64,000 nt of DNA from a virus: IMG/VR virus record IMGVR_UViG_3300025645_000038, positions 32,001 to 96,000 of that record; one strand, written 5' to 3'. The notes beneath the pieces are model-generated. The model saw only the letters and a program-made list of their open reading frames with translations. It ran no database searches and was not told the DNA's origin. Position numbers and translations under genes: made by a program. Below are positions 2,811 through 60,600 of the stretch, one piece after another (positions within the stretch are counted from its first letter, which is position 1; every line of letters begins with the position of its first letter).

Positions 2811-2863
2811 ATAAATTCGTATAATACTTTTTTTCTGTATATATATTACTATGTTAACATACA

Positions 2864-2999: not shown

Positions 3000-3008
3000 T
3001 TTAAATAT

Positions 3009-3362
3009 ATGAAATCAAGAAGTGCCAAGAATAAAGGTAAGAGACTTCAGAATAACGTAAGAGATCTTTTACTAGAAACATTCAATCAGTTAGAGCCCGA
3101 TGATGTTCGTTCAGCTATAATGGGTGAACAAGGAGAAGATATCAAATTATCTCCAGCGGCTAGAAAACTAATCCCTTACTCATTCGAATGTAAAAATCAA
3201 GAAGCATTAAATATATGGTCATCCCTACAACAAGCTGAAGAAAATAGTGGTGATTACGATCCTGTCTTGATATTTAAAAGAAACAGAAGTAAAACTTATG
3301 CAGTTATCAACATAGAAAAATTTATAGAACTAATCAATGAAAATAATAAATCTTCTCAATAG
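3009..3362 (+). CDS. PD-(D/E)xK nuclease, Holliday-junction-resolvase-like (Hjc/T5 D14 type)
   Basis: SAKNKGKRLQ N-terminus, GEDI, SFECKNQE catalytic motif, PVLIFKRNRS. Confidence 0.75.
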   Translation: MKSRSAKNKGKRLQNNVRDLLLETFNQLEPDDVRSAIMGEQGEDIKLSPAARKLIPYSFECKNQEALNIWSSLQQAEENSGDYDPVLIFKRNRSKTYAVINIEKFIELINENNKSSQ

Positions 3363-4278: not shown

Positions 4279-4468
4279 TGATGAGGAATGGAAAATCCAC
4301 ATTACTGATGTCGAGCTTTTTGAACAGACAAAGAAAAAATTTGATTTGGGAAATTCTGTCACTATTTATTATGAAAGTGGCAGTTTATCCGAAGAAACAT
4401 CTTGGGATATAATAGTACCAAATAGCAAAATTAATAAAGTCAAAAAATTCATAAAGGATAATACTTGA
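4247..4468 (+). CDS. Hypothetical protein
   Basis: 73-aa ORF overlapping both neighbours, in operon orientation; no recognisable motif. Confidence 0.55.
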   Translation: MAKQKNIWKFNDEEWKIHITDVELFEQTKKKFDLGNSVTIYYESGSLSEETSWDIIVPNSKINKVKKFIKDNT

Positions 4469-7400
4469 TTAAAGAAAATGTTGTAAAAGTACCTTTTCGT
4501 AAATTAAAGCACATTCATCATATATCTGATATCCAAATCAGAAATTTAAAGCGACATAAAGAATATGAAGAAGTCTTTGAGCGTACATACGAAGAAGTAA
4601 AAAAACATAAAGATAATGCCGTAGTCTATATCGGTGGTGATATAGCTCATTCAAAAACCGAAATGTCGCCTGAATTAGTCGATCAGCTTTCTCGTTTATT
4701 TAAGAATCTTTCTGATATCTGTCCTACGATATTAATCGCAGGTAATCACGATTGTAACTTAAATAACATATCGAGAATGGATGTTCTTACTCCTATAGTA
4801 AATAACTTACAGCACCCCAACTTACATTATTTAAAGAATAGTGGCGTGTATAAATGTGCCGATGTAAAGTTTGTCGTATGGGATGTGTGGGAAAAAGAAG
4901 ACGATTATATTGAGGCTAAAGATGTTGAAGGTGATACTAAAGTAGTTCTGTTTCATGGAACAGTTGATAAGTCAGAAACGGACTTGGGATTCAAACTGCC
5001 ATCTGATGTAAATATATCCAAGTTCAAAGGTTACGATATGGGATTGCTAGGTGACATCCACAAAAGACAGCATCTCAATAAAGAGGAAACCATTTCTTAT
5101 TGCGGTTCATTGGTTCAACAGAATCATGGAGAGGGATTAAGTCATGGTTATTTATTGTGGGATGTTCCTAAGAGAACTTCTGAGTACATAGAAGTACCGA
5201 ATGACTACGGCTATTATACGATAAACATAGATGATGGTAAGGTACCTGATTGTCCTGATATACCACAAAAGGCTAGATTAAGAGTTAGAGTAGCTAACAC
5301 CACACCATCACAACTAAAGAAAGCTATGAGTCTTATTCATAGTAAATATGGAATCAAAGAAGTATCTGTTACAAAGACAGACTCTATATACTCTACAGAT
5401 AAGGTTAGAGGACAACACATAGCAGTTGGTAACATAAGAGATGCTGATTATCAGTTCAACCTAATAGATGAATACCTAAAAACAAATCACTTCGTAGATG
5501 ATGCTACTCTGATTGATATCAAAAAGATAAACGAAGAGTTAAATGGTAGATTACCTGAAGATGATGTGAATAGAGGTGTGAACTGGCAAGTCAAGAAGTT
5601 AGAGTTTGATAATATGTTTTCTTATGGGGAGGGTAACATAGTTGACTTTACTAAACTAAATGGTATTGTTGGTTTGTTTGCTCCAAATGCTCAAGGTAAA
5701 TCTTCTTTATTAGATACTCTTTCTTTCTGTCTATTCGATAGGTCTTCAAGAGCTTACAAAGCAATCAATGTTCTTAACAATAAAAAGGATTGGTTTAGTT
5801 GTAAAGCTACATTAGAGGTTGAGGGTGTAGAATACTTTATAGAAAGAAATGCTAAAAAACAATCAAATGGTCATGTTAAGGTCAATGTAGATTTCTATAC
5901 TTATGATGATGCTAATGAAAAAGTATCTTTAAATGGTGACCAACGAAGAACTACAGATGTAAATATCCGTAAGTTAATAGGAACTTATGATGACTTTATA
6001 ATGACAGCACTTTCTCTACAAACAAACTCAACTGTATTTATTGATAAGACACAAAAAGAAAGAAAAGACTTACTTGCACAATTTATGGGTATTGGTGTAT
6101 TTGACCAACTTTATAATTTAGCTAGTGATGAGATACACGATGTCCAATCTCTACTAAAATCTTTTAGAGATAATAACTACGATACAGATTTAGCTCAGAT
6201 AAAAGAAAGTCTAACTGATTTTAGAAAAGAGTCAAGAGAGTTAACTGCAACTAAAAAAGAAATGGTTGCTGATAAAAAGAAGTCTGATAGAAAGATTATA
6301 AGTCTTACTAAGAAACTCAAAAAGGTTGATGATACTGTTGGTAGCTTAGATGAATTAGAAGAAAGAAAATCTTCTCTTAATAATAGTCTAGCTTCTACAG
6401 ATGAAAAGTTTGGTAAACTTAAAACACTTTCTGAACAACACAAGGTTGAAGAAACTGAACTAACTGAAAAGATAAATATCTTTAAAGAAAATGAAGTAGA
6501 TAAAAAGTTTGCTCAGTTTGAACAATATAGTTTAGAAAAATCAAATCATCAGATAGAGATAGACAAACTAAAGATTGAAGTTCAACATAAGTTAGAAAAG
6601 ATTGAAAAGCTAGGTAACTTAGAACACGATCCTAATTGTGATTATTGTATGAGTAATCCTTTTACATTGGATGCTATAGAGACAAGAGAAAAACTGAATG
6701 AAGATAAAACTTTAGCAGATACTTTTCTAAAGAAGTCATCTGAATTAGAAACTATTATAAATGGTTTATCTCACATTACAGCACATAAAGAACAGATGGA
6801 TTCTTGTATAAGTGATTTTAATTTATTGACTTCCAATATTAGTAAAGTAGATAGTGAACAGAAACTAACTACAGAAAAGAAAAAGAATCTTATAAGTCAA
6901 TTAGCTATTATTGAAGATAAGATTAATCTTTATCATGAACAAGAAAAGGATATTTTGTTTAACAAAGACTTACACAACTCTATTGATGCTGAACAAAATG
7001 ATTCTGATAGATTAGAGAATGATATAGAAGAGTTAGATAAAAAGTTACAATCTGTAAATGGTGAAATAAAAGTATTAGAAACTAATCGTAGAAACATAAT
7101 GTCTAATATCAAAAAGGTAGAGGAATTAGAAGGTAAGTATGCTGCTTATCAATATTATATGGATGCTATCAAGAGAGATGGTATACCTTACGAACTAATA
7201 TCTAAAGCTCTACCGACTATCGAAGGTGCCGTAAATGATATACTTGCACAAATTGTAGACTTTTCTATGATATTAGAAATGGATGGTAAGAATATAAATT
7301 GTTACATAGTGTATGATGATGATAATGTATGGCCTCTTGAATTAAGTAGCGGCATGGAACGATTTATCTCCTCTCTAGCTATGCGTGTGGGATTGATAAA

Positions 7401-7620
7401 TGTTTCTAACTTACCAGCTGCTAACTTCTTAGCAATCGATGAAGGTTGGGGAACTATGGATTCAGACAATTTAAACTCAGTTTATAATCTGTTTCAGTAT
7501 TTAAAAACTCAGTTTCAATTTACAATGATTGTTTCTCATATAGATTCTATGAGAGATGCTGTGGATACTTTATTAGAAATTAAGAAAGAAGATAAGTTTT
7601 CTAACGTATCTTTTGACTAG
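4465..7620 (+). CDS. Fused Mre11/SbcD (gp47-like) nuclease and Rad50/SbcC (gp46-like) ATPase
   Basis: Phosphoesterase motifs SDIQ, GGDIAH, AGNHD, FHG, GDIH. Walker A APNAQGKSS, coiled coil with hook CDYC, signature LSSGME, Walker B LAIDEG, H-loop IVSH. TTG start after AAGGA. Confidence 0.92.
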   Translation: MIKENVVKVPFRKLKHIHHISDIQIRNLKRHKEYEEVFERTYEEVKKHKDNAVVYIGGDIAHSKTEMSPELVDQLSRLFKNLSDICPTILIAGNHDCNLNNISRMDVLTPIVNNLQHPNLHYLKNSGVYKCADVKFVVWDVWEKEDDYIEAKDVEGDTKVVLFHGTVDKSETDLGFKLPSDVNISKFKGYDMGLLGDIHKRQHLNKEETISYCGSLVQQNHGEGLSHGYLLWDVPKRTSEYIEVPNDYGYYTINIDDGKVPDCPDIPQKARLRVRVANTTPSQLKKAMSLIHSKYGIKEVSVTKTDSIYSTDKVRGQHIAVGNIRDADYQFNLIDEYLKTNHFVDDATLIDIKKINEELNGRLPEDDVNRGVNWQVKKLEFDNMFSYGEGNIVDFTKLNGIVGLFAPNAQGKSSLLDTLSFCLFDRSSRAYKAINVLNNKKDWFSCKATLEVEGVEYFIERNAKKQSNGHVKVNVDFYTYDDANEKVSLNGDQRRTTDVNIRKLIGTYDDFIMTALSLQTNSTVFIDKTQKERKDLLAQFMGIGVFDQLYNLASDEIHDVQSLLKSFRDNNYDTDLAQIKESLTDFRKESRELTATKKEMVADKKKSDRKIISLTKKLKKVDDTVGSLDELEERKSSLNNSLASTDEKFGKLKTLSEQHKVEETELTEKINIFKENEVDKKFAQFEQYSLEKSNHQIEIDKLKIEVQHKLEKIEKLGNLEHDPNCDYCMSNPFTLDAIETREKLNEDKTLADTFLKKSSELETIINGLSHITAHKEQMDSCISDFNLLTSNISKVDSEQKLTTEKKKNLISQLAIIEDKINLYHEQEKDILFNKDLHNSIDAEQNDSDRLENDIEELDKKLQSVNGEIKVLETNRRNIMSNIKKVEELEGKYAAYQYYMDAIKRDGIPYELISKALPTIEGAVNDILAQIVDFSMILEMDGKNINCYIVYDDDNVWPLELSSGMERFISSLAMRVGLINVSNLPAANFLAIDEGWGTMDSDNLNSVYNLFQYLKTQFQFTMIVSHIDSMRDAVDTLLEIKKEDKFSNVSFD

Positions 7621-38869: not shown

Positions 38870-39358
38870 ATGGCTGGTAGATTTTTACCTCAAAGAGATG
38901 TTGACTTAGTAACAAGAGTCAGTAGAGAATTGGTTGGTGATAAACAAGGAAACAAAGACGGATTAATAAATCAAGAATGTGTTGTTTATAAACCATCCTT
39001 ACAAGAGTCAGCAGTAAACATGTATGGTGAAGCTGCTGGTGGTAAGAAGGTGTATAAGAATGGAGTACAGATGGCTGCTCTTGTCTCAGCTGATGATTTC
39101 GATTTCAATACAGATGAGTTTGGGCCTGATGCACAACAGAATGCTACATTCTCATTTTTAAGACAATCATTTATAGATGCTTCAATGGTATTGGAGATAG
39201 GCGATTTAATAGATTGGAATTATGGATATTTTGAAGTTGGTTCTATAAACGAAAATCAATTAGTTGGTGGTCAATTTGACCAAAACTTTTCGGTTGTAGC
39301 AACAACTTTTTTAATTAGAAAAAGTTCTATACAAATAGAAAGAGTTAGGAGTACATAA
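38870..39358 (+). CDS. Neck/head-closure protein (gp14-like)
   Basis: Position after the adaptor; NMYGE and EIGDLIDWNYGYFEV motifs. Confidence 0.6.
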   Translation: MAGRFLPQRDVDLVTRVSRELVGDKQGNKDGLINQECVVYKPSLQESAVNMYGEAAGGKKVYKNGVQMAALVSADDFDFNTDEFGPDAQQNATFSFLRQSFIDASMVLEIGDLIDWNYGYFEVGSINENQLVGGQFDQNFSVVATTFLIRKSSIQIERVRST

Positions 39359-40926
39359 TGGCTCGTGAAAAACCAATACCTCGTTCTGCTAGAAAGAAAA
39401 TAAATCGTGGAACATTGAGGTCGAGAGGAGATGACCAAGTAAAAAACATATCAGTTGGGTTGATGGATATCGATGCAGCTATTATGTTTTATTTCAATAA
39501 TGTTATTAAACCTACTGTTATAGAAAATGATGAAACTATAAAAGTTCCTCTTATGTACTCTAATCCAGAAAGATGGAATAGTATACAAAAAAACGGATAC
39601 TTAGTTGATAATAAAAAACAACTATTAATACCACTAATTGTATTCAAGAGAAATTCTATATCAAAAGATGAAACTATGTCTGTTGATAAAATAGATCCTT
39701 TAAATCCTCAATTATTTCGTACTTTTCAAAGTAAATATTCTAAAAAGAATAGATATGATAATTTTTCTGTTCAACAAGGATTAAATAAAACAAAAGAGCT
39801 TTATACAGTGGGTGTACCAGATTATGTAAATCTTGAATATGAATTTATTGTTTGGACATCATATACTGAACAAATGAATAGTATAATAGAAAAAATCATT
39901 TGGAGTGAAGGTTCTTATTGGGGTGAAGATGGAAAGTTTAAATTTAGAACCTCAATAGATAACTATACAGATGCTAGTGAATTTACAGTAAACTCTGAAA
40001 GATTGATTAGAACTACTTTTTCAGTCACTCTAAAAGGATATTTAATACCCGAAGAATTTAATAGTGTTGTCACAACACAAAAGGCGTTAACACCAAAAAG
40101 AATATTAATTGGTGATGATGTAAGTGTAAACCTAACCGATTTGGTAGGAGATAGCCAAACCAGAGATGTAAGAATATCTGTATCGAAAGATGGTGGAGCT
40201 GGCGGTGGTGGTGGATTAGAAAAACCATTTACGATAGCAACAGGAACTGGTGTATCTATTGCAGGAGCTGGTCAGTTTGATGGAAGAAACTCTAAAACAT
40301 TTACATTTAGCATTGGTCAAGATGTAGGAACATCGAGTACAGTCCAATTTGCTAATGTCTCAGCTTCAAGTGCAATTCATATAGGCCCAACATCATTTGA
40401 AATAAAACAAAGAGATGATGGAAAAGCTGAGGTAAGTACGGATTGGGTTGTAAAGGGAGATATCATCGCAGAAAACTTTGTGGTTACATCTTCTGTAACA
40501 TCGATGTCTGTTGCTTTTGCTAGTGGTTCTACTAAATTTGGTGATAGTCCCGATGATACACATAGGATAACAGGTTCTATGAGCATAGTAGGAAACTTGT
40601 TAGTTAATGGAGCAGCTACAATTACAGCAACGACTATAACTACACCAGACCAATATATGAGAAAACAATTTGTCAAGAAAGCTGCTTCAATTAGTATACC
40701 ATCAACTGCTAGTTTTACTGCCGTAACAGCCTCTGCTCCAAGTGGTTTGACTGCTACAAACGAACAAGACTTTGTTTTCTTTATCAATGGACAATATATG
40801 GAACATGATGCTCTTACGATTAAGCAAGCTGGTTCAAACTTTTTATTACTTGTAGATACCGATAGTATAGGTTATAGTTTAGAAGCTGATGATGAGATTA
40901 TTGCTCAAGGAAAGTTTAATTCCTAA
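39358..40926 (+). CDS. Tail completion/terminator protein (gp15-like) with a fibre-like C-terminal extension
   Basis: IKVPLMYSNPERW, VPDYVNLEYEFIVWT, QMNSIIE, FSVTLKGYL. The C-terminal part carries SGSTKFGDSPDDTHRITGS, shared with the fibre genes. Confidence 0.65.
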   Translation: MAREKPIPRSARKKINRGTLRSRGDDQVKNISVGLMDIDAAIMFYFNNVIKPTVIENDETIKVPLMYSNPERWNSIQKNGYLVDNKKQLLIPLIVFKRNSISKDETMSVDKIDPLNPQLFRTFQSKYSKKNRYDNFSVQQGLNKTKELYTVGVPDYVNLEYEFIVWTSYTEQMNSIIEKIIWSEGSYWGEDGKFKFRTSIDNYTDASEFTVNSERLIRTTFSVTLKGYLIPEEFNSVVTTQKALTPKRILIGDDVSVNLTDLVGDSQTRDVRISVSKDGGAGGGGGLEKPFTIATGTGVSIAGAGQFDGRNSKTFTFSIGQDVGTSSTVQFANVSASSAIHIGPTSFEIKQRDDGKAEVSTDWVVKGDIIAENFVVTSSVTSMSVAFASGSTKFGDSPDDTHRITGSMSIVGNLLVNGAATITATTITTPDQYMRKQFVKKAASISIPSTASFTAVTASAPSGLTATNEQDFVFFINGQYMEHDALTIKQAGSNFLLLVDTDSIGYSLEADDEIIAQGKFNS

Positions 40927-40978: not shown

Positions 40979-41251
40979 ATGAGAAAACGACATTGGAAAA
41001 ATAGAAAGAATAGAAAATGTCCTACTTGTACTAGGATATTAACTTATTCTCGAAAAGATTCCTTTGATAGAGCAGTAGGTAACAACTCTGTCTGTAAGTC
41101 ATGTGCTCAAACAGATAGAAAAGTAACAATGGAGACATTGGAAAAGATGAAACAACCTAAGACTGTCGAACATAGAAAAAAGATTTCACGCTCTATGAAG
41201 ACGCGTTGGGAAAAACTGAGAGAGAAAGAGTATGGCTTTACTAGACAGTAA
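40979..41251 (+). CDS. Small zinc-ribbon plus NUMOD3-like DNA-binding protein
   Basis: CPTC...CKSC followed by KTVEHRKKISRSMK. The ATG at 40979 is preferred to 40889, which overlaps the upstream gene. Confidence 0.6.
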   Translation: MRKRHWKNRKNRKCPTCTRILTYSRKDSFDRAVGNNSVCKSCAQTDRKVTMETLEKMKQPKTVEHRKKISRSMKTRWEKLREKEYGFTRQ

Positions 41252-41951
41252 ACAATTAAATCCAAGACTTACAGGTTCGTTTACCCTTTCTGGTAGTTTA
41301 TCAACAGAAAAGAATACACGAATTATAAGCAATTTAACAGAAATTATAAAGGTTACAGTAGTTTCTGATAATGGAAATAAGTATGCTTTTGAAGGTGCTA
41401 CTGCTCCTAATATCACAGTAGCTGAGGGAAAGACTTATAGATTTGATACATCTGATAGTACAAATAGTACCCATCCTTTTAGATTTAGTACCACATTAAG
41501 TGGAAGTTGGGCTGGCGGTAGTGCTTACACAACAGGAGTAACAGTAAATGGAACACCAGGACAAGGAGATTCATACACAGAAATTTCAATCAATAAAGTC
41601 ACACCTAATCATCTTTATTACTATTGTACTGCTCATGCTAATATGGGGAACGATGGTAAGTTACTTAAAAACGATTTTACAAACTTACATCTCGTAAGTG
41701 GTTCATCAGTATCAACCGGTTCGTTTGGACACTTAGTAGTACAAGGAAATGTGACTGCTAGTGGTACTGTAAGAGCAGATGCTTTCGAATCTGTTCAAGG
41801 TGGAGACACGATAAGTTTTGGAGATAATTTAAGTGTTACTGGTCAGATAACTGCGAGTGGTAATATAGATACTACAAGTGGTAGGGTATTTGAACAAGGA
41901 ACATCAGTAATAGACCATGCTACGGCGATGGCTATTGTATTTGGAGGATAA
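41232..41951 (+). CDS. Virion protein with a cupredoxin-like domain
   Basis: YRFD...HPFRF...LYYYCTAHANMG; one VSGSSVSTGSFG repeat; ends in AMAIVFGG. Confidence 0.7.
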   Translation: MALLDSKQLNPRLTGSFTLSGSLSTEKNTRIISNLTEIIKVTVVSDNGNKYAFEGATAPNITVAEGKTYRFDTSDSTNSTHPFRFSTTLSGSWAGGSAYTTGVTVNGTPGQGDSYTEISINKVTPNHLYYYCTAHANMGNDGKLLKNDFTNLHLVSGSSVSTGSFGHLVVQGNVTASGTVRADAFESVQGGDTISFGDNLSVTGQITASGNIDTTSGRVFEQGTSVIDHATAMAIVFGG

Positions 41952-41953
41952 TA

Positions 41954-42277
41954 ATGGCTAATACTTTTAAAAATGCTGGAGTTGCTGTTGGAAATAGTGC
42001 TACTACTATTTATACTGCACCTGGTAGTACAACAGGAGTTATTCATGCAGTTTACATTAGTAATGTAGATGGAACGAATGACGCAACAATAGATTTGTAT
42101 GTAACAGATACAAGTGCTGGTTCTGATTTTTACATTATGAAAACAGTAGATGTACCAGCAGATTCAACTTTGGTAATTGAGAAACCTATTAATTTAGAAG
42201 CTGGTGATGTACTAAAAGCTGTTGCTTCAGCGGCTGGTGATTTACAAGCTTTTGCGAGTGTATTGGAAATAACATAA
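41954..42277 (+). CDS. Small beta-rich virion structural protein
   Basis: MANTFKN...IYTAP...INLEAGDVL...SVLEIT; GGAGG upstream; lies within the fibre operon. Confidence 0.65.
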   Translation: MANTFKNAGVAVGNSATTIYTAPGSTTGVIHAVYISNVDGTNDATIDLYVTDTSAGSDFYIMKTVDVPADSTLVIEKPINLEAGDVLKAVASAAGDLQAFASVLEIT

Positions 42278-42278
42278 T

Positions 42279-45200
42279 ATGGCTAACCTAAAATATATAG
42301 GTAAAAATATACTAAACCACACCCTTGAAATCAAGAAGGGTGATGTAAGTGGTTCGTCTAGTTCTACTGGTTCATTTGGTAGAGGTGAAGTAACCACATT
42401 AGAAGCATCTTCATTTGGAAGTAGTGCTAGTACTTTAATTAGTGGTTCATTTACATCAACAAGCTCCTCATTAGCTAGTAGAATTACCACAGCGGAAACA
42501 GAATTAGGTAATACCTTAATCAGTTCATCTGCTCAGATAGCTTCTGATATTAGTGGTTCATTTACATCAACAAGTTCATCACTTGCTGGTAGACTAACTA
42601 CAGAAGAAGGAAATGTAGATACACTTCAAGCTAGAGATTTAATAGCAGGAGCTGGTTTAACTGGTGGTGGAACATTAGCCTCTGATAGAACTTTCAATGT
42701 AGTCGGCGGAACTGGTATTACAGCAAATGCAAATGATATACAAGTAGATTTTTCAGACTCAACTTTACAGACTACAATTAGTGGTTCATTGGGTACTAAT
42801 GCTACATTGATAAGAAGTCTTACAGCAGCTGGTATTAGTGGTTCATTTACACCAACGAGTTCATCACTTGCTAGTAGACTAACCACAGAAGAAGGAAACG
42901 TAGATACTCTTCAAGCTAGAGATTTAATAGCTGGTACAGGTTTAACAGGTGGTGGAACATTAGCTTCTGATAGAACTTTTAACGTAGTCGGTGGAACTGG
43001 TATTACAGCAAATGCAAATGATATAGAAATAGATTTTTCAGATTCCACTTTACAAACCACAATTAGTGGTTCAGTTACTTCGGTAAGTTCTTCATTAGCT
43101 GGTAGGATTACTACTGAAGAAGGAAACGTAGATACTTTACAAGCTAGAGATTTAATAGCAGGAGCTGGTTTAACTGGTGGTGGAACACTAGCCTCCGATA
43201 GAACTTTTAATGTTGGTGCTGGAACAGGTGTTACTGTAAATGCTAACGATGTAGCTATTGGACAGGCAGTTGCAACATCTGATAATGTTACATTTGGTAG
43301 TGTGACTACAACAGGAAACATAAGTGGTTCATCAACCTCAACTGGTTCGTTTGGTCAAGGTCATTTTGCTAATAGTTTAGGTATCGGCACTACATCGCCA
43401 AGTGCCTTAATTCATGGAACTGGTACAAACGGTACAACATTAAGATTAAAAAATACAAGTAGTGCGTTAAATTATATCCATCTTGAAAATAGTGCGAATA
43501 CTGGTAACTTCATACAAACAAATGCTGATAGTATAATGTTAAACGCTGATGCATTTGGTTCTGGTGGTGATGTTAGATTAATGACTGGTAATACTATAAG
43601 AGTAAGAGTAAACGAACATGGATTAGGTATAAATGCCACACCAGCAGATGATATAAGATTGAGAGTTAAATCATCCGATAACGATGATGGTATTCAATTA
43701 GATGACCAAAGTGGTAATTCATTATTTAAAGTATTCCAACAATCAGATGGTGTTGGAAGATTATTTGTAGGTGGTAGCTCATCGGGTACAGTTTTTACTG
43801 TAACAGGTGGTGGTGATGCTTCCTATGTAAAGACAGGAACATTTGGTGTTGGCGTTACAAGCCCAACAGCAGAGCTAGATGTAAGTGGTTCTCTTCAAGT
43901 ATCTGGTCATATAAGTGGTTCATCATCCTCAACTGGTTCGTTTGGTAGAGTTGAATCGGACACATTTAATGCAACAACATTTACAAGTACAGAAGTAACC
44001 TCTACAAATCTAACGGTTACAGGAACAATAACTGGTTCTTCTTTAAATGTAAGTGGTGATGGTATATTCGGTGGTAACATAAGAGCAGTAGGTGATGTAA
44101 TAGCAGAAAGATATATTGTATCATCTTCGGTTACACATCTTACACAATCTTTTAGTAGCGGTTCTACGATTTTTGGGGATAGTGCTGATGATACTCATCT
44201 ATTTATTGGTAGTAAGATAAGTGGTTCATCAAACTTAACAGGTTCGTTTGGTGCTGTATCAATAGGAAAAGGAACTGCTGATAATCAAAGAGCACTTACC
44301 ATTTCTGGTAATGTTCAGTTAGATAACAATAATGCAATTTACTTTAAAAGGTCAACAGGTACAGCAGATCCTCATATAATTTATAATAGTAATAATGACT
44401 TTAATATTTTCAATCCACTTGCTGGTGAGATAAAATTTGCTGTAGGTAGTGCTGAAATAGTTGTTGTAGATAGTAGTGGATTAACATTTAACGGAAGTAA
44501 GACAATCGGTTCTTCTGCTGGTGCTGGTGTAATAACTATTGCGGGTAATAGTGGTTTAAAACTAAAGTCAGGTGGTGGCGGTGGTTCTGGTCCTATAGAA
44601 CTTATACAAGGTAGTACAACCTATTGGTCAGTAGGTACAAGTGGTGCTTTGACTGGTAGTGCTGACTTGGTGATGAATGCTGGAAAAAACATAAGTGGTT
44701 CAGCAACCTCAACTGGTTCGTTTGGTGAAGTTCATACTGAGGGTGTAAAAGGATTAGCTGGGGATTACAGTAGTGTATTATTAGTACCAGATACTTTACA
44801 ATTTGGCAATGATGCGGATTCAATGTTTAGAAGAAGAACTTCAAACGATGTTGAGTTTAGAATGGCTGGTTCAGATATAGTTAGGATAAACACAAGTGGT
44901 TTACAGGTTGAGAATGGTAATTTAGAAGTTGAAAGTGGTAATGTAATAGCTAGTGGAAACATAAGTGGTTCATCAACCTCAACTGGTTCGTTTGGTAATC
45001 TTAGGGTTGGTGATAGAACTGCTCATGCTAATAGATTTACAGCGTATGGTGGAAATGAAGGATTTAAGGTAGGTTACGCTCAATCAGGTTTCTTAGCTAG
45101 TACAGGTGCTGCTTCAGATGGTGCTGATGCAGAAATAGTAATGACAGGAACTGGTGGTTCTGCTCCATTTAATAATCATGGTAGTATCGTATATAAGACA

Positions 45201-48200
45201 AGAGCAGTTGATACATTACAAAGAAGTTCACATATATTCTACACAGGTAGAACATCTGCTGAAAGAGTAAGGATTGACCACGATGGTAATTTGGGTATTG
45301 GCACAGCTGCTCCTTACTATAAAGCTCATATATCATTTGATAATTCTACTACATCATTTAGTGGTGGTAGTAGTGGAAATTGGGGTGGTAACGGACTGCG
45401 AATTGAAAATACTAATAGTACAACAGATACAAAGGCAACCTTACAATTAAGAGCAAATGATTATGATGCTCTAATATCTGCAGTTAAGAAATCAGGTGGT
45501 AATACAGGTGAAGTACATTTTAACGTAGATCCTGATGCAAATACAAATCAACTTCTCACATTAGCAGGTTCTAAAATAAGCGGTTCATCAACCTCAACTG
45601 GTTCGTTTGGTCATTTGGTAGTTGATGATGCTATTAAAGTAGCACACGGTGGTACAGGTACTACATCTTTAACATCTAATGCTATATTAACTGGTAATGG
45701 AACTTCACCTATACAGGCAGAATCAGACCTTACATTTTCTCCTGGAGGTTCATTATCAATTTCAACTACTCAAGATCCAATTTTAATATTAAATAGAACT
45801 AGTGGTGGAAGTTCCGCTATACATTTTAAAAATTCTGGAACTACAAAAGCTTACATTTATTCAGACACTAGTCAGAATTTGTATTTTGGAAATCCAACTA
45901 CGAATCCAGTATTAAAGCTTAATGCCGATGGTTCTTCTGTATTTGCTGGTAATGTAAGTGGTTCATCAACTTCAACAGGTTCGTTTGGTAGAGGGTTTAT
46001 TGCTGATGATTTATTTGTAGGTGATGGTACAACAACTGGTGGTATAATATCAGGATACAAAGCTGATGGTGCTTACTTATACCTACAGAATAGCACTACC
46101 GGTACGGGTCCTGCTAAAGGTATATCACTACAGGCTTATCAAGACGATGGTTATGTGGGTAACTATTCTAATACATCTGGTAAGTTCATAATCTTTGTAA
46201 ACAATGGTAACACTCATGCAATAACTATCAATGGTACAACAAGTCACAAACTTCTCACATTAGAAGATTCTAAAATAAGTGGTTCATCAACCTCAACAGG
46301 TTCGTTTGGTTCTTTAATAGTTGATGGTGTGATACAAGGTGCTACCGAAATAGGTGGTGATTTAACTATAACGGATGCTACACCAGCATTAACTTTTAAT
46401 GATACAAATGAACATCCATCAAGAATAAGTGGTAATGGTAGTCATGTAACTTTACAAGCTGATTATAATAATACTGGTGCTGGTTCAAGGATTGATTTTG
46501 AGATAGATGGTACTAATCAAGCTAGATTGTATGGTCCTACTGGTGACCTTACATTGTATAATGGTGGATTAGTAACTGCTGGTAACATAAGTGGTTCATC
46601 AACCTCAACAGGTTCGTTTGGTGATGTTCATATTGTTGATAAACTTCTTATCGGTACTAAAACAGCTGATACTGTATGGAATTTTGTACCTAGAGTACAA
46701 ATAGAGGGTACAAATGCTGCTTCATCAGCTTTTAATATAGTTCGTAACAGTAATGATGGTTCTCCACCATATATTATAATGACCAAAACAAGAGGTAGTG
46801 CAGCTGGTGGAGATACTCTTGTTCAAAATGGTGATATACTTGGTAGAATACTATTCGCTGGCGCTGATGGTACTGATAGAGCTCCGATAGGAGCAAGAAT
46901 AGCAGCTGGCGTAGATGGTACACCAGGTGAAAATGATTTACCAACTGAGCTAACATTTTGGACTACTGCGGATGGAGCACAACAGCCAACACAAAGAATG
47001 GTTATCAAAAGTTCAGGAAAAGTAGGCATCGGCGAAACATCTCCTGATTACTTTGTACATATTAAAGATAGTGCTCACACAAGATTACAACTAGAAGCAG
47101 GTAGTGTAAACCATCAAACTTATCTACAATTTGAAGCAGATAGACCAGCAGAAAACGATACAATAGGAAATATACAATTTAGGGTTGCTGGAAATGTTTC
47201 ATCAGCTATTATAGGATATAGAGGAAGTGGAGATAGCTCAGGTTATACGGTATTTACAAGTGGTGGTACGACTGAAAGAATGAGACTAGCTGAAAGTGGT
47301 GATATAGTATTTAGTGGAGCTAATCAAAAAATAAGTGGTTCATCAACCTCAACTGGTTCTTTTGGTGTTGGTTTCTTTGACGATAGTGTTGGTATGGGAG
47401 TTGCACCTGGTAACTCAAGTTATTTGTTGAATATAGAAGCAGCTCAAACTTACGCTGCAAGATTTAAATCAAGAAAGACAACTTCATCTACTTCTCAAAG
47501 AACGATGATACTGGTTGGAAGTGGACAAGACAAAGGAGCTGGTATCTTCTTTCAAGGTCCAGGTACAAATCTTTCAATAGGTGTAAAGGAAGATAATAAG
47601 TTTCATATTGCACCTGGTAGAAATGATATTGGTGATTCTAGTGCTTATTCTGTTACTGTAGATACAAGTGGTAACTTTGAGGTTACTGCTGGAAACATAA
47701 GTGGTTCAGCAACATCAACAGGTTCGTTTGGTAGGGTAGAAGTAAATTCAATATCAGCTAGTCTTTATCAAGGACAAATCGGTTCTCGTTATGTTCATTC
47801 ACAAACATCTGATTCTGCTACTTGGTCAATAAATCACAACATAGGACATAAGTATCCTGTAGTTACTGTATATGATACAAGTGACCAAATGATTTTACCT
47901 GAAACAGGAACTGCTACAGACTCAGATACATTTACCCTAACATTTAATGAAGCTATTCAAGGAAAAGCTGTAGTTTCTGTTGGTGGAATCGGTGAAAATG
48001 CTGGTGGTAACTATATATTTACACAAGATTCTTCTACTACAAATTGGAGAGTTACACATAGTTTAAGTCAACAATATCCAAATGTAACTGTGTATGATGG
48101 TAGTAATCAAGTAATTATACCTGAAAGTATTACAGCTGCTAGTTCTAACGAAATGGATATCACATTTTCAGATGCTCAGAGTGGATATGCTAACTTTTCA

Positions 48201-48554
48201 ATCGGTAGTGGAATACCGAACATAAGTGCAGAAAATGCTGGTAAGGTTCTAAAGGTAAGGTCAGGTGGACAAGGTGTGGAATGGTCACCAACATCAAACG
48301 ATGTATCAGGCTCAATGTCTGTTTCCGGTAGTATAACACCAACGATAGACAACTTTCATAACTTAGGTTCTGCTACACATAGATGGGCTAACCTACATAC
48401 TGGTGATATTCAACTATCCAACGAAGGTTCGGAAGGAAACGAAGTAGATGGAACAACAGGCTCTTGGACAATACAGGAAGGCGAGGATGACTTATACTTA
48501 TTGAATAGGAAGAATGGTAAAAAGTACAAATTTAAATTAGAGGAGATTACCTAA
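42279..48554 (+). CDS. Modular tail/neck fibre protein (2091 aa)
   Basis: Triple N-terminal repeat, 12 ISGSSTSTGSFG linkers, GIGT-type fibre motifs, two WxxxHxxxxxYPxVTVYD domains, C-terminal LGSATHRWANL...VDGTTGSWTIQEG domain. Confidence 0.85.
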   Translation: MANLKYIGKNILNHTLEIKKGDVSGSSSSTGSFGRGEVTTLEASSFGSSASTLISGSFTSTSSSLASRITTAETELGNTLISSSAQIASDISGSFTSTSSSLAGRLTTEEGNVDTLQARDLIAGAGLTGGGTLASDRTFNVVGGTGITANANDIQVDFSDSTLQTTISGSLGTNATLIRSLTAAGISGSFTPTSSSLASRLTTEEGNVDTLQARDLIAGTGLTGGGTLASDRTFNVVGGTGITANANDIEIDFSDSTLQTTISGSVTSVSSSLAGRITTEEGNVDTLQARDLIAGAGLTGGGTLASDRTFNVGAGTGVTVNANDVAIGQAVATSDNVTFGSVTTTGNISGSSTSTGSFGQGHFANSLGIGTTSPSALIHGTGTNGTTLRLKNTSSALNYIHLENSANTGNFIQTNADSIMLNADAFGSGGDVRLMTGNTIRVRVNEHGLGINATPADDIRLRVKSSDNDDGIQLDDQSGNSLFKVFQQSDGVGRLFVGGSSSGTVFTVTGGGDASYVKTGTFGVGVTSPTAELDVSGSLQVSGHISGSSSSTGSFGRVESDTFNATTFTSTEVTSTNLTVTGTITGSSLNVSGDGIFGGNIRAVGDVIAERYIVSSSVTHLTQSFSSGSTIFGDSADDTHLFIGSKISGSSNLTGSFGAVSIGKGTADNQRALTISGNVQLDNNNAIYFKRSTGTADPHIIYNSNNDFNIFNPLAGEIKFAVGSAEIVVVDSSGLTFNGSKTIGSSAGAGVITIAGNSGLKLKSGGGGGSGPIELIQGSTTYWSVGTSGALTGSADLVMNAGKNISGSATSTGSFGEVHTEGVKGLAGDYSSVLLVPDTLQFGNDADSMFRRRTSNDVEFRMAGSDIVRINTSGLQVENGNLEVESGNVIASGNISGSSTSTGSFGNLRVGDRTAHANRFTAYGGNEGFKVGYAQSGFLASTGAASDGADAEIVMTGTGGSAPFNNHGSIVYKTRAVDTLQRSSHIFYTGRTSAERVRIDHDGNLGIGTAAPYYKAHISFDNSTTSFSGGSSGNWGGNGLRIENTNSTTDTKATLQLRANDYDALISAVKKSGGNTGEVHFNVDPDANTNQLLTLAGSKISGSSTSTGSFGHLVVDDAIKVAHGGTGTTSLTSNAILTGNGTSPIQAESDLTFSPGGSLSISTTQDPILILNRTSGGSSAIHFKNSGTTKAYIYSDTSQNLYFGNPTTNPVLKLNADGSSVFAGNVSGSSTSTGSFGRGFIADDLFVGDGTTTGGIISGYKADGAYLYLQNSTTGTGPAKGISLQAYQDDGYVGNYSNTSGKFIIFVNNGNTHAITINGTTSHKLLTLEDSKISGSSTSTGSFGSLIVDGVIQGATEIGGDLTITDATPALTFNDTNEHPSRISGNGSHVTLQADYNNTGAGSRIDFEIDGTNQARLYGPTGDLTLYNGGLVTAGNISGSSTSTGSFGDVHIVDKLLIGTKTADTVWNFVPRVQIEGTNAASSAFNIVRNSNDGSPPYIIMTKTRGSAAGGDTLVQNGDILGRILFAGADGTDRAPIGARIAAGVDGTPGENDLPTELTFWTTADGAQQPTQRMVIKSSGKVGIGETSPDYFVHIKDSAHTRLQLEAGSVNHQTYLQFEADRPAENDTIGNIQFRVAGNVSSAIIGYRGSGDSSGYTVFTSGGTTERMRLAESGDIVFSGANQKISGSSTSTGSFGVGFFDDSVGMGVAPGNSSYLLNIEAAQTYAARFKSRKTTSSTSQRTMILVGSGQDKGAGIFFQGPGTNLSIGVKEDNKFHIAPGRNDIGDSSAYSVTVDTSGNFEVTAGNISGSATSTGSFGRVEVNSISASLYQGQIGSRYVHSQTSDSATWSINHNIGHKYPVVTVYDTSDQMILPETGTATDSDTFTLTFNEAIQGKAVVSVGGIGENAGGNYIFTQDSSTTNWRVTHSLSQQYPNVTVYDGSNQVIIPESITAASSNEMDITFSDAQSGYANFSIGSGIPNISAENAGKVLKVRSGGQGVEWSPTSNDVSGSMSVSGSITPTIDNFHNLGSATHRWANLHTGDIQLSNEGSEGNEVDGTTGSWTIQEGEDDLYLLNRKNGKKYKFKLEEIT
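42345..47732 (+). repeat. Twelve dispersed 36-bp in-frame repeats, consensus ATAAGTGGTTCATCAACCTCAACWGGTTCGTTTGGT
   Basis: Copies at 42345, 43320, 43911, 44217, 44691, 44961, 45576, 45954, 46275, 46587, 47331 and 47697; further copies at 41694 and 60192. Confidence 0.92.
42590..43250 (+). repeat. Three in-frame tandem copies of an about 228-bp unit
   Basis: EEGNVDTLQARDLIAG(A/T)GLTGGGTLASDRTFNV begins at 42603, 42888 and 43116 (periods 285 and 228 bp). Confidence 0.9.
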
Positions 48555-51500
48555 ATGGCTATTTTTAGTGGTGACATATTTGCCGAAAATTATACTGTAT
48601 CATCATCTGTAACCAACGTTCAGATATCATCTGTCTCTGGTTCTACAAAGTCTGGTGATACACCAGATGACACTCATCAGTTTACTGGTTCTTTATTCAT
48701 AAGTGCTAGTAGGATTTCATTTGACGATGGTAAACAAAATATTGCTGTTGGTAAATCAGCTCTTTATGGTATTACTTCAGGAGCTGGAAATACTGCTATC
48801 GGTTATGAGGCATTATTAACAGAAGACACAGGTGGTGGTAATACAGCAATAGGTTATCAAGCATTAAAACTTAATAATAAAGATAGTTCTACAGCAGGAA
48901 ATACTGTTATAGGTTATCAAGCAGCTACTGCTTTTACTAGTCACCAAAGAAATACTATTATTGGTTATCAAGCTGCTTTATCTGCAGATGGTGGAGAAAA
49001 TAATAATACTATAATTGGCTGGCAAGCTGGAATGAGTATGAATAGTAATGATGCAAGTAATAATGTTATCATTGGAAAAGAAGCGGGTACTGGAGGAACT
49101 GGTACATTAGCAAGTGCGGTAATTATAGGTGAAGGTGCTATGAACTCAACTGCAAATCAAGCATCTACTGGACAAGTAGCAGTTGGTAGGAGTGCTCTTA
49201 CTGCACTTACATCAGGAATTGGTAATACTGCTATTGGATACAAAGCAGGTCAAGGAATAACCTCCGATAGTAGAAACACAATCATTGGATATGAAGCAGT
49301 ATACTCCTCATCATTAAATGATGATATGGTTGTTGTTGGACACAAAGCTGGTTACAATCTAAAAGGTGATTCTGAACATGGTGGTGTACTTATTGGTTCT
49401 GAAGCTGGATATAATTTAACAGACGATGCTACTTATGCATTACGACCTAATATGTTCATTGGATATCAAGCAGGCTACAATTTCACAACAGCTAATCCAA
49501 GTATGGGTATCGGATATAAAGCTTTATGGGGAGAATATGTAGGTGCTAATGGTACTAGTCACTCTAATATTTATGGTAGTAATTTAGCTATCGGTGATTT
49601 TGCTGGATACGCTGGTGGTAATACAACAGGATTTGGTGGTAACACATATGCAGGACACTTTTCTGGTGAAGGTCATGTAGGTGGTGGATCTACACATATC
49701 GGTTACGAAGCTGGTAGATACACAGCTTCTGGTTCTCAAGATGTTTTTATTGGATACAATGCAGGAAAGATTACACACTTATCAGGTGATTCATCAAGCA
49801 CTCCTACTGCTAGATTAGGTCTTAACGTTGCTATTGGTTATAAAGCTCTGATGTCTGGTGGTACAACTAATGTTGCTATTGGTCATGAAGCATTGACACA
49901 TCAATCTGGAAGTTCTAAAAATACCGCTGTTGGATACGCTGCAATGGAAAACTCAGCTAGAAATATATCAGGTGTGACTGCAGTTGGTTACTCTGCTGGT
50001 AGTTCTGCAACGGGATTTTATTCTGTTTTAATTGGAGAGGCGGCAGGATATAACGCTAGTATAGCTACTGTTTCAATTGGTTACTATGCTGGATACAGAA
50101 CAGCAGCTTATACAACAGCTATTGGTTATGGTGCACTTTCAAGAGGAACAGGTACCAGAAATGTTGCAGTTGGTACAGACACTCTACGAGGATATCCATA
50201 CACACAAAACCAAGAAACAGGTAACAGTACAGGTACAAATAATACTGCTATTGGTTATAATGCAGGACTAGCTTACAATTCTGCTAGTTATAATACTCTT
50301 GTTGGTTATTCAGCTGGATACCGTATTGATAATGGTGAATATACTGTTCACATTGGTAACGAAGCTGGTAGATACGCAACCGGTTCTCGAAATACGTTTG
50401 TAGGAAATGAAGCTGGTAAAGGTGGACAAGCATCTGCTCCGTATAGTTCAGGTCAGGATAATGTTTCTGTTGGATATAGATCTCTTTATAGTTTCACAAC
50501 AGGTCAAAGTAATGTTGCGATTGGAAAATCAGCAGCTCAAAATCTTACCACTGGAGTTTATAATACCGCAGTCGGTAATGAAGCTTACTCTGGTACAACG
50601 GGTAATAACAATACAATAATAGGAAGGGCTGCTGGCGCTTCAATGACAACTGGTCAACAAATTACAGCAGTTGGGGCTACAACATTTAACTATCTCACAG
50701 TTGCTACAGATTCTACTGCAATAGGATTCGATGCGGGAGAATATGCTACAGGTTCCTACAACACATTCGTAGGTTCATCTGCAGGAAAAGGTGGAACAAC
50801 TTCTGCTCCATTTAGTTCAGGTCAGAATAATACTGCTCTTGGATATCAAGCTCTTACTGCTTTCACGACTGGTGGTTCAAATACTGCTATTGGATATCAA
50901 GCTGGATATCTAATCTCATCAGGATCTTATAATGTAACTATGGGATATCAAGCTGGTTACAGTTTGGGTGGAACTTTTAATAATGTAATGATTGGTAATT
51001 ATGCGGGAGCACTTAGCAACACAATAAATAATAGGAATGTATATGTCGGTGATTCAGCAGGTAGATATCTCGATACAGGTATTGCAAATGTTGCTATCGG
51101 TTATGAAGCTATGGAGTCAGCTGGTTCTGGTAATGACGCCTCATATAACACCGCTATAGGATATCATGCATTGGAATCAATCACAGATGCTGATTACAAT
51201 ACCGCTATAGGACAAGCCGCAGGTCAAAATATTGAGGGTGGTAGTGGTCAGAACGTATTTATTGGAAACAGTGCTGGTATAACTTCAGTTACCAGTGCAT
51301 TCAATATAATGATTGGAGTAAGTGCAGGTCTTGCTGCTACGGATGTGGATAAAACAGTTCTGATAGGATGGAACGCTGGAAGAAACACAACCGCAGACGG
51401 AACAATCGCTATCGGATACCAAGCTTTGCTCGAACACACGACTGGTGTAAGAAATATTGCTATTGGTAGAGATGCAATGAAAGGCACAAACGCTGGTTCT

Positions 51501-57600: not shown

Positions 57601-60600
57601 GTTCTCAAGCTGGAAAAGGTGGAACAACATCTGCTCCATATAGTTCAGGTCAGAATAATGTTGCTATGGGATACGAAGCTCTTAAATCTTTCACAACCGC
57701 ACAAAGAATGGTAGCAATCGGATACGAAGCTATGACGGATGTTAAAGATGGTCAAGATAGTGTTGCCATAGGATATCAAGCAGCCTACTACAACTCAAGT
57801 AGTTATAGTGTATCCATAGGTAAGGGTGCTGGAATGGTAATGGGTGGTGGTTATAATGTTTCCGTAGGATTTGGAGCTGGTGGTTCAGCATCCGATTCAA
57901 ATGTTGCTATCGGACAAAGAGCAATGGGATTACAGCCAGCTGCTAATGAGAATGTTGCTGTTGGTAGTGTCGCTGGTTCTAATTTAATTGGAGGTTTTAC
58001 AGCAATAGTTGGTGCTCAAGCTGGTAGACATGCAACTGGTTCTTATAACACATTTATGGGATATAAGGCTGGTTATGGTTCAATAACATCTGCTCCGTTT
58101 AGTTCAGGTGAAAATAATACTGCACTTGGATACAATGCTCTTAAAGCTTTCACGACTGCTGCTTCAAATACAGTAATCGGATATTCTGCTGGTAGTAGTA
58201 TAACAACCGGTGGTGCTAACATACTTATCGGCTCCCAAGCTGGTATGAACATAACAACAACCACGAGTAACGTAGTGATAGGTAATAATGCAGGTCAACA
58301 TCTTGGTGGTTCAAATGCTGATAATCATGCTAATAGAAACGTAATCATCGGTCACTCCGCTGCAAAAGGAAGTAGTCCATCTATAGCAAAAGGTCACTAT
58401 AGTGTTGTAATAGGTGACCAAGCTCAATATCATTTTAAAAGTGGTAGTCAAAATGTTTATATGGGATATCAGTCTAGTTACTACAATCAAAATGGAAACT
58501 ATAATGTTACCATTGGAAGTGGTGCTGGATCCAATGCAACTGGTTCTAGTAATACTTTTGTTGGATATAGGTCTGGTAAAGGTGGAAACTCATCTGCTCC
58601 ATATAGTTCAGGTGGAAATAATACTGCTTTTGGATATGAAACTCTTACTGCTTTCACGACTGGTGAGTCTAATGTAGCCGTTGGTAGAGAAGCAGGTCAT
58701 GACATCACTACAGGTACTGGCAACACTTTAGTCGGTAATGCTGCAGGTGATAAAATAACAACAGCTGAGTATAATACTGCTATTGGAGCTGGTGCACTTG
58801 GTTCACAAGCAGCAGATGCGGATGGAAACATCGCTATTGGTGATTTTGCTATGGGTGCTGTCAATAATGCAGCTTCTATAGAAAATGTAGTAGTCGGTGG
58901 ATATGCAGGAAGTGGTGGTACTGGTCAACTTATACGAACCGTTGCTATAGGTAAAAATGCTCTTAATTCTACAGGTACTGCAAATCTGACTGGTACAGTA
59001 GCAATAGGATACAACGCAGGAACGGCTATAAATCATGCTGCTGCTCTATCCTCAACTTTAGTTGGATATTTATGTGGTGATTCTATAACATCAGGAGCTG
59101 GTAACTCAGCTTTTGGTTACGAAGCATTAACTGCCCAATCTGTAAATGGTTGGAACGCTGCCTTTGGTAATTATTCTGCTCACGCACATACAGGAGCATA
59201 TAGTACTTTTCTAGGTACTAAAGCTGGTGAAAATTTAACTTCGGGTAATAATGCTATTCATATTGGATTCAACACAGCTGCTTCAGCCGTAGATGTTGAT
59301 AGTGAGTATGTAATTGGAGCTGGAACTTCATTCTCAGACGGATTGACTGGTGGTGGAACTGAAACAATAAGAATAGGTGTTTCTACGGATTACATAACAA
59401 ATGATTTTGGTGAGAATGCTACTTGGACACATTCATCAGATAGACGAGTTAAGAAAAACATTGAAGATAACGATTTAGGATTAGGGTTTATAGAAAAACT
59501 AAGAACACGAAAGTTTCAAAAGAAAGCACCTAGTGAATATCCTGAAGAGTTTGAACAACATAATTCAGATACTACGGAAAGAAAGAATCCAGATAGAATA
59601 CATTATGGTTTCGTTGCTCAAGAAGTTAAAGAAGCTATGGATTCAGTAGGACACTCAGAGTTTCCTGTTTGGAAGGAAAACAGAGATGGAATGCAAGAAC
59701 TTGGTGAAACAGAATTAATTACACCTCTTGTAAAAGCAGTTCAAGAACTTTCTTTAGAAAATAAAGAATTAAAAGACGAACTTAATGAGTTGAAGATACT
59801 TATTAAAAAGAAATTAGGAGACGAATAGGTGAAAATTGATAGCCCAACCTTTTTAAGTGAAACTACTTTTATAAGTGCTTCAGTTCAATTCTCAAGTGGT
59901 TCACAAAAATTTGGTAATACTACAGATGACCAACACCAGTTTACTGGCTCTCTTAAAATTGGTGGTACTTCATTTTTCAGAGATATTGGTTCTGCCCACC
60001 AAGTATACATAGATTCAGATACTGGTGGTGTAGCACAGATAGGAACTAACACATATACACCATTAAGTATACGAGCTAACGGAAACCAAGCTATATACAT
60101 CAGTCAAGGCGCTGTGGTTTCAATGGGTACTACAAACGTAGGTAATCTAACATCTACTGGTACTATAGTAAGCACTGGAGCTAATGCTTTAATAAGTGGT
60201 TCATCTACTTCAACTGGTTCTTTTGGTATGATTACAACACCAAGTGATATTGGTGGTAAACCAGCTGCAAGATTACATAAATTTGCATTCCTTAGAGCTT
60301 CAGATTCTGGAGATACTAGTACAAGTGGATATAATAGTAAATCAGGTAACACAATATTTGGATATGATGCCGCTTCTCAAATAGTTCAGAATAATGGAGC
60401 TGGACATTCCAATACCTACATCGGACATTATGCCGGGCATGGTAACGCGAGTGGAGATCATAATACTGCTATTGGGCATGTAGCAGGTCTTGGTGGAAGT
60501 GGTGATAATAATACTTCTGTAGGATCTTATGCTGGGTATAATATAACCTCTGGTGGAAATTTAGTTTTAATAGGTAGGAGCGCTGGTGTAAGCATTACCG

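Follow-up and report, generated by a model that had tools for sequence, protein, structure and literature searches.

We analysed a 64,000-nucleotide (nt) stretch of viral DNA, hereafter the window, which comprises bases 32001-96000 of the 164,845-bp IMG/VR record IMGVR_UViG_3300025645_000038 (estimated completeness 79%). At 42279..48554 on its + strand lies the gene for a 2091-amino-acid (aa) fibre protein (fibre gene 1, protein P0001), which consists of an N-terminal anchor, 12 modules and 12 copies of a 12-residue linker encoded by a 36-nt repeat that we call the joint. We consider it probable, at roughly three chances in four (0.75), that this is a modular fibre in which the near-identical linker DNA serves as an in-frame joint for general homologous recombination. 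Coordinates refer to the window and to its + strand unless stated otherwise.

Joints and modules of fibre gene 1

The joint peptide, [I/V]SGS[S/A]xSTGSFG, occurs in 12 in-frame copies in the open reading frame (ORF) of fibre gene 1, located at 42345..42380 (joint 1), 43320..43355 (joint 2), 43911..43946 (joint 3), 44217..44252 (joint 4), 44691..44726 (joint 5), 44961..44996 (joint 6), 45576..45611 (joint 7), 45954..45989 (joint 8), 46275..46310 (joint 9), 46587..46622 (joint 10), 47331..47366 (joint 11) and 47697..47732 (joint 12). A first-pass annotation, made from the letters of the window, had listed the same 12 in-frame copies with start-to-start spacings of 975, 591, 306, 474, 270, 615, 378, 321, 312, 744 and 366 nt, all of which are correct. 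Scanning for the 36-mer at the DNA level, we recovered 11 copies with 0-2 mismatches in 42345-47732, among them joints 6 to 10, and one copy with 3 mismatches at 60192; 100 shuffles gave 0. Joints 6 and 7 were also marked by blastn matches. Joints 2 and 6 (43320 and 44961) both carry the consensus 36-mer and are identical, as had been annotated, and the copies at 46275 and 46587 are identical to each other. Joint 1 (VSGSSSSTGSFG) is the most diverged DNA copy, 7 nt from the consensus, and was found at the peptide level, as was a copy at 41694. The conservation at the DNA level that had been ascribed to all 12 copies thus holds for 11 near-identical ones but not for the first.

Over the whole 164.8-kb record there are 14 peptide-level copies, all on the + strand, and the DNA-level copies number 12 in the forward and 0 in the reverse orientation. 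The two copies outside fibre gene 1, which had also been noted before and were found again here, are located at 41694..41729 in a 239-aa ORF (41232-41951), the middle of which is unconserved in relatives, and at 60192..60227, where fibre gene 4 has its single joint.

The segments between the joints of fibre gene 1 are 234-939 nt in size (modules of about 80-310 aa) and have no mutual BLAST similarity, the best inter-module E-value being 0.006, so that their earlier description as largely unrelated stands at the sensitivity of BLAST. The gene had also been called a repeat-spacer array, but the likeness to such arrays is only formal. The first segment (42381-43319, aa 35-347 of P0001) consists of three ~95-aa units in tandem, each beginning with ISGSFTSTSSSLA, which looks like a decayed joint peptide. 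Near the other end of the protein, the last ~78 aa of module m12 (~48320-48554) correspond to a separate, joint-bounded module in three fibre loci of related contigs (L090, L053 and L115; loci are numbered L below), and the sequence that precedes them in the window, VSGSMSVSGSITP, likewise has the look of a decayed joint. The C-terminal 97 aa of P0001 match the C-terminus of the fibre protein gp28 of cyanophage P-SCSP1u (E=1e-18), the structure of which has been solved (PDB 8i4m).

Homology breakpoints at the joints

Breakpoints were mapped by comparing the window gene with fibre loci fetched from related IMG/VR contigs, using the ends of blastn high-scoring segment pairs (HSPs) and anchored ungapped alignments. 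The change in DNA identity, from ~30% to 87-100%, takes place at the edges of the 36-mer, over a few bases. Ten loci, representing ~7 distinct contigs, match the window at 76-91% nt identity from ~41850-42000, and these matches stop in joint 1 or 1 nt past it. The upstream gene, a 107-aa ORF (phrog_1276; 41954..42277), and the first 22 codons of the fibre gene therefore make up a conserved block, the anchor, and joint 1 is the boundary between this anchor and the variable body of the fibre. Further downstream, the HSPs with L222/L009 end 8 nt beyond joint 2, those with L146, L147, L073 and L061 begin within joint 3, and those with L085 (91.7%), L068, L158, L066 and L154 end within joint 4. In the comparison with L033, identity is ~30% before joint 11 and 93-97% from that joint onward, and a stretch of 120 nt that is 100% identical up to joint 12 is followed by ~30-40% identity; with L085 the pattern at joint 12 is reversed, identity rising from 30% to 87% at the start of m12. 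Modules m5, m6, m11, m12 and the tail of m3 were each joint-bounded in the blastn comparisons. The joint copy of fibre gene 4 is also a homology boundary, since an 89.9% HSP with L050 begins exactly at 60192.

To quantify this pattern, we counted the unique HSP ends in the window gene, of which 26 out of 79 were located in a joint or within 8 nt of one, a zone that makes up 9.9% of the gene (P=2e-8); 9 of the 12 joints were used. Over all loci, the fraction of breakpoints within 6 nt of a joint was 15% for HSPs of at least 75% identity, 30% at 85% or above and 43% at 95% or above, as compared with 5.6% for random positions. The enrichment was only ~2.6-fold when all HSPs of at least 75% identity were included, and the signal became clear once the low-identity HSPs, the ends of which reflect decay rather than exchange, were dropped.

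The modules have also been relocated. Every homologue of a window module that passed our filter (at least 50% identity over at least 60% of the shorter module) is flanked by modules without detectable similarity to the neighbours in the window. Among 84 non-redundant pairs of homologous internal modules, 44 shared neither neighbour, 15 shared one and 25 shared both. Module m5 (78 aa; 44727..44960), which has joint 5 at its left edge, is present in full length in four other fibre genes (L033, L055, L088 and L052) with unrelated neighbours, at 56-79% aa identity over 78/78-79 residues and 77-88% nt identity. Module m6 (193 aa; 44997..45575) is common to L085 at 86.7% nt identity from joint 6 to joint 7, and m12 (273 aa; 47733..48554), the C-terminal tip, is common to L085 (91% aa identity) and to L146/L147/L073 (79% aa identity).

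Relocation is also seen in contig G001, the backbone of which is 87-91% identical to the window and which keeps the m3 tail, m6 and m12 in order in a 2006-aa fibre-1 gene. Its counterparts of m11 (110 aa; 47367..47696 in the window; 93.8% nt identity, 94% when rounded) and of m5 (85%) are located ~15 kb downstream in a different fibre gene and in reversed order, indicating that modules are transferred not only from genome to genome but also from one paralogous gene to another. In the same contig (locus L085) the anchor resides in a separate 430-aa ORF (281-1573) that is followed by the 2006-aa fibre ORF (1583-7603), so that one gene in the window corresponds to two there.

Whole-module indels in near-identical genomes

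Two pairs of near-identical wild genomes differ by one module and one joint. L021 and L079, which come from different samples, are 99.9% and 99.6% identical on either side of a 327-nt indel that comprises one 97-aa module and one joint. As far as the end of the joint L021 equals repeat copy 1 of L079, and from there on copy 2; the crossover is thereby placed in a 25-nt run that both copies have in common and that begins within the final 6 nt of the joint. A third sample yielded L025, which is identical to L079 (100%). The second pair, L086 and L169, is 98.2% and 98.7% identical on the two sides and differs by 354 nt (one module and one joint), with the junction inside the joint. The crossover positions differ between the two events, which fits general homologous recombination rather than cleavage at one fixed bond. 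Three other large indels between near-identical loci were far from any joint.

The first-pass annotation had proposed that the repeat is a recombination joint and that orthologous genes should be compared to see where they break. This comparison supported the proposal, in that breakpoints coincide with the 36-mer, modules mostly stand between non-homologous neighbours and whole-module indels separate near-identical genomes.

Relatives that are 99% identical (L043 versus L045/L074, and L159 versus L160) differ by indels of 1535 nt and 902 nt, thousands of bases from the joints. These are a different kind of variable insert.

DNA identity and codon usage of the joint

The mean pairwise nt identity of the 12 copies is 0.911, as compared with 0.669 +/- 0.0145 in 5000 back-translations of the same 12 peptides with the codon usage of the gene itself (z=16.7). 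The Ser at position 10 is encoded by TCG in 10 of the 12 copies, a codon that accounts for 2.7% of the Ser codons in the gene (P=1.4e-14), and the Thr at position 6 by ACC in 7 of 9 copies, with ACC accounting for 6.8% of the Thr codons (P=2e-7). Both the preference for TCG and the synonymous identity in excess of codon bias, as first annotated, therefore withstood the codon test. In copies with identical peptides the differences amount to 2.55 nt within a locus and to 3.72 nt between loci, in a sample partly biased by the strict DNA scan, and 10.8 nt would be expected. In a codon-agnostic sample of 54 copies from 19 loci, picked via the neighbouring gene, ACC (61%) and TCG (54%) still lead at their positions, whereas invariant Thr and Ser columns of gp15-like orthologues contain ACC in at most 20% and TCG in at most 27% of cases.

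The peptide is also subject to selection at the protein level, as indicated by mismatch rates of 0.096 at the first, 0.050 at the second and 0.23 at the third codon position in 570 copies defined by nucleotide similarity alone; third positions are 2.4-4.6 times more variable than the other two. Taken together, the identity data fit a pattern of concerted evolution, in which the exchanges that shuffle the modules would homogenise the joints, most strongly within the gene and the sub-lineage. A structured nucleic-acid signal was considered separately and rejected, since the 36-mer has no DNA fold (z ~0 in three contexts).

Proposed mechanism and alternative explanations

In the mechanism that we propose, fibre gene 1 would encode a long virion fibre made up of a chain of heterologous, self-contained modules joined by the 12-residue linker. 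With the linker in phase 0 and encoded by nearly the same 36 nt throughout the sub-lineage, any two copies would offer a short stretch of homology, whether they reside in the same gene, in two paralogous fibre genes of a genome or in relatives that infect the same cell. Recombination between two such copies should give an in-frame product in which a module has been deleted, duplicated, inserted, relocated or replaced. Repeated exchange would keep the copies alike, and selection on the protein would keep the linker peptide, which is probably a structural element between trimeric modules. The turnover of modules may alter adsorption or host range and thus diversify host binding.

The enzymes are likely to be the phage's own UvsX/RecA and Mre11-Rad50 proteins. 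The window contains a 1051-aa Mre11-Rad50 fusion of the T4 gp47/gp46 type (4465..7620, +; Metallophos domain at aa 16-199, AAA_23/SMC_N at aa 376-1044), encoded in a single ORF whereas T4 has the two genes for gp47 and gp46, and a RecA/UvsX homologue (E=7e-57) is located outside the window (G000:C1:117912-118658). No match to Pfam Resolvase (PF00239) or Phage_integrase (PF00589) was obtained in the 164.8-kb record, the estimated completeness of which (79%) leaves absence from the genome unproven. The first-pass annotation had likewise seen no site-specific recombinase but genes that would permit homologous routes, and on both points our searches agree with it.

Several observations weigh against recombination at the joint as the full explanation. 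Over half of the high-identity breakpoints lie away from joints, all comparison sequences are short-read metagenome assemblies, and if only correctly folding proteins persist, selection could by itself enrich domain borders in junctions. In the family-wide codon-agnostic sample, joints with unrelated flanks had a codon identity of only 0.575, to be compared with ~0.42 expected from codon usage in a hand calculation and ~0.51 when the AGY and TCN families of Ser codons are held frozen; the strong DNA identity is thus local to the sub-lineage and not a property of the whole family. In 24 co-inherited pairs, the synonymous sites of the joint were not significantly better kept than those of the flanks (71% versus 66%, Fisher P=0.17), a result that gives no support for direct selection on the DNA of the joint. 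Finally, an AlphaFold2 (AF2) monomer model of aa 1333-1830 of P0001, computed from a 129-row alignment, was uninformative on the linker, with a predicted local distance difference test score (pLDDT) of ~50 at all four joints of a fibre that is presumably trimeric.

A more far-reaching variant, which we regard as speculative and on balance improbable, is that the 36-mer has become a DNA-level "standard joint" under second-order selection in a metapopulation of marine T4-like phages. The hundreds of modules would then constitute a shared, in-frame combinatorial library, a coding counterpart of integron cassettes that is run by general homologous recombination and possibly stimulated by a phage nuclease that cuts at or near the joint.

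Slightly less probable again is the explanation that the linker is purely structural and needed for trimer folding and assembly, that the DNA similarity is a residue of recent intragenic duplication combined with frozen AGY/TCN Ser families, and that junctions appear at joints because only domain-border recombinants fold. The near-invariance of the peptide in 460 different contexts and the higher variability of third codon positions over the 570 copies speak for it, as do the only modest excess of family-wide codon identity over expectation and the unexceptional synonymous sites of co-inherited joints. However, duplication of a repeat together with its module did not produce the copies, since the modules that separate them are unrelated, and the rare codons TCG and ACC dominate at fixed positions. 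Moreover, the crossovers of both indel pairs lie inside identical runs common to the two repeat copies, and identity switches within a few nt of the 36-mer in many independent pairs.

It is very unlikely that the recombinant structures were created by short-read assemblers that fused co-occurring strains at a shared 36-mer. The compared sequences are indeed metagenome contigs and the repeat is common to co-occurring relatives, but independent samples yielded identical architectures (L147 matches L146 throughout 15 joints, and L025 equals L079), and every product is a long, uninterrupted ORF. At the L021/L079 indel, the two copies of the repeat share only 85% identity over 68 nt, their longest identical run being 25 nt, and a repeat of 36 nt is shorter than common final assembler k-mers and reads.

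We also consider it very improbable that a site-specific recombinase or nuclease dedicated to the 36-mer moves cassettes in a shufflon- or integron-like manner. The repeat is short, sharply bounded and of a single orientation, as such a target might be, and ~21% of the genome lies outside the record, in which many ORFs are unannotated. Yet the recombinase searches above were negative, the crossovers vary (inside the joint once, at its 3' edge plus 19 nt in the other event), the repeat lacks inverted copies, internal dyad symmetry and a fold, and synonymous sites within it drift. That rare ACC and TCG codons persist because ribosomes pause at them and each module gains time to fold before the next one is synthesised, with recombination incidental, is just as improbable: they do occupy fixed positions on every module border and the record contains no tRNA for either codon, but the common TCA replaces TCG in about half of the codon-agnostic copies with the motif retained, and co-inherited junctions have no excess of synonymous conservation.

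Three known types of system were considered and rejected. A shufflon or invertase (Rci-sfx, Gin, Cin) is contradicted by the 0 inverted copies and by the lack of a Ser or Tyr recombinase match in the record. A diversity-generating retroelement is contradicted by the lack of a match to the reverse transcriptase family RVT_1 (PF00078) and by the nature of the variation, which consists of whole unrelated modules and not of adenine-specific substitutions. A CRISPR-type array is contradicted by repeats that are codons of a 2091-aa ORF and have no fold, and by "spacers" of 234-939 nt.

Comparison with known systems

The closest described system is the recombination at conserved motifs of gp37 and gp38 in T-even phages, where the principle is already known. 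In these long-tail-fibre adhesins, exchanges at or near His boxes (gp37) and glycine-rich motifs (GRMs; gp38) give rise to chimeric proteins (Tetart et al. 1996, 1998, as summarised in Trojet et al. 2011, PMC3157838), and the GRMs of gp38 hold a strict order and number (PMC3157838). Fibre gene 1 resembles them in having short, in-frame, conserved motifs between variable segments, in the exchange at or near these motifs and in belonging to a T4-like phage with a recombination system of its own. It differs in that the joint peptide ISGSSTSTGSFG is unrelated, has no His and is not a GRM, and P0001 had no Pfam or PHROG match to the gp37/gp38 families. By these comparisons, fibre gene 1 appears to work like the T-even motif-recombination family while not being a member of it in sequence. 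Other differences are the number of joints per gene (12-15 versus ~5) and the nature of the cassettes, which are not loops of one fixed domain but entire domains of 50-1200 aa that belong to over 500 families and vary in number and order. This scale is unusual, and natural indel intermediates are available in genomes that are 98-99.9% identical, although the system is known here from metagenome sequences alone.

In a broader survey, tail fibres ranked with those classes of protein in which recently shuffled fragments are most strongly enriched (Smug et al. 2023, PMC10684548), and this survey was explicitly agnostic on the genetic process (PMC10684548). While fragment shuffling in phage receptor-binding proteins is thus well documented and the process usually left open, the specific joint sequence, the breakpoints and crossover points and the natural intermediates are directly seen in the present system. 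Another comparison is offered by the receptor-binding genes of Streptococcus thermophilus and lactococcal phages, in which, as Duplessis and Moineau reportedly proposed in 2001, collagen-like (Gly-X-Y) repeats flank a variable region and act as recombination hot spots. There, too, repetitive in-frame DNA in a host-recognition gene would mediate swaps of the region between its copies, but the repeats are low-complexity triplets around one variable region, whereas here a unique 36-mer punctuates a long array of modules. The invertible segments of Mu (Gin) and P1 (Cin) and the R64 shufflon (Rci, sfx repeats) operate inside a single genome, by means of inverted repeats and a recombinase of their own. 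They share with fibre gene 1 the short repeats in or near an adhesin gene and the in-frame joining of alternative C-terminal segments; in our case all copies are direct, no such recombinase was found in the record and exchange takes place between genomes.

If the joint is transferable, it would provide a ready-made natural standard for the in-frame assembly and exchange of fibre modules. The 36-mer may also serve as a simple marker by which fibre modules could be located and their limits drawn in marine viromes, and the system is a tractable one for asking whether evolvability itself is selected.

Distribution of the joint and the modules

A strict 32-mer search, with three third positions left free, identified the joint in 82 IMG/VR stretches and in two contigs of marine metagenome-assembled genomes (MAGs). 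The latter are L226 (NHHP01000001.1), a 71.9-kb contig assigned to Candidatus Pelagibacter sp. TMED166 with 3 copies in a fibre ORF of >1381 aa, and L227 (NHIV01000009.1), assigned to bacterium TMED198. Both are probably phage contigs binned into MAGs and give a weak hint of the host. The peptide conserved over 460 distinct contexts reads G-[N/K]-[I/V]SGS[S/A]TSTGSFG-x-[LVI]-x-[VIA], and conservation drops steeply on either side. Several joint-bearing contigs have the gene order of the window, indicating that the joint belongs to this phage lineage, and the downstream fibre genes of relatives contain 2-15 joints at quite different spacings. Among cultured phages (50,697 records) there was no match in megablast searches with the gene or in blastn searches with the 42-nt joint region, a short query that the low-complexity filter may mask. 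No PDB chain contains the joint peptide, and in the literature searched the STGSFG peptide was not found in a phage context.

The distribution of the modules is different. The core of module m10 (236 aa; 46623..47330) is a fibre domain of very wide distribution, with 18,508 representatives at E<=1e-3, and the joint peptide was present in only 7 of the 150 top ones; modules are thus common currency while the joint is lineage-specific. The AF2 model was confident for this core (pLDDT>90 at model residues ~120-265), and a Foldseek search related it to the Bdellovibrio bacteriovorus fibres Bd1334 and Bd2439 (8oml/8onf, E=7.5e-8) and to the C-terminal region of the L-shaped tail fibre pb1 of T5 (4uw7, E=2e-4). 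The likeness is one of core fold, concerns m10 only and is silent on the joint. An entry for Bd2439 (8ol4) is a complex with N-acetylglucosamine (GlcNAc), which makes a sugar-binding role of m10-like modules plausible, and a carbohydrate-binding fibre of the "beads on a string" type is plausible too.

Across all loci, 723 modules were assigned to 523 families. Some families recur within a single gene of the relatives, as in L146 (13972-21459), L108 (4707-10550) and L081 (F4...F7...F7 F4; F54 x3; F29 x3), a pattern that suggests intragenic duplication of modules at joints.

The phage and its genome

The phage is an uncultured marine, distant T4-like myovirus. Its capsid protein is of the gp23 type, with ~50% identity to Flavobacterium phage immuto and Microcystis phage Mel-JY01 and 34% to Rhodothermus phage RM378; from these relatives, flavobacteria would be a first guess for the host. 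Genes for the portal (gp20) and the large terminase (gp17) were identified in the record together with a gp15-type tail sheath stabiliser (tail completion gp15; 39358-40926), UvsX and gp46/47, and the gp15-like neighbour protein has 212 IMG/VR relatives at 45-76% identity. The RNA genes of the record are a transfer-messenger RNA (tmRNA; tag VNDEPTYAYAA, predicted with ARAGORN) and a single tRNA-Gly(tcc), both located outside the window (G000:C1:9378-9797 and 10909-10981, respectively).

Between the Mre11-Rad50 gene and a putative packaged-enzyme gene, a single ORF of 4583 aa covers 7865-21616 (+). Downstream of fibre gene 1, three more giant fibre genes are located at 48555-64000 (+); they are built from other repeats, and two of them end in a Peptidase_S74 intramolecular (endosialidase) chaperone.

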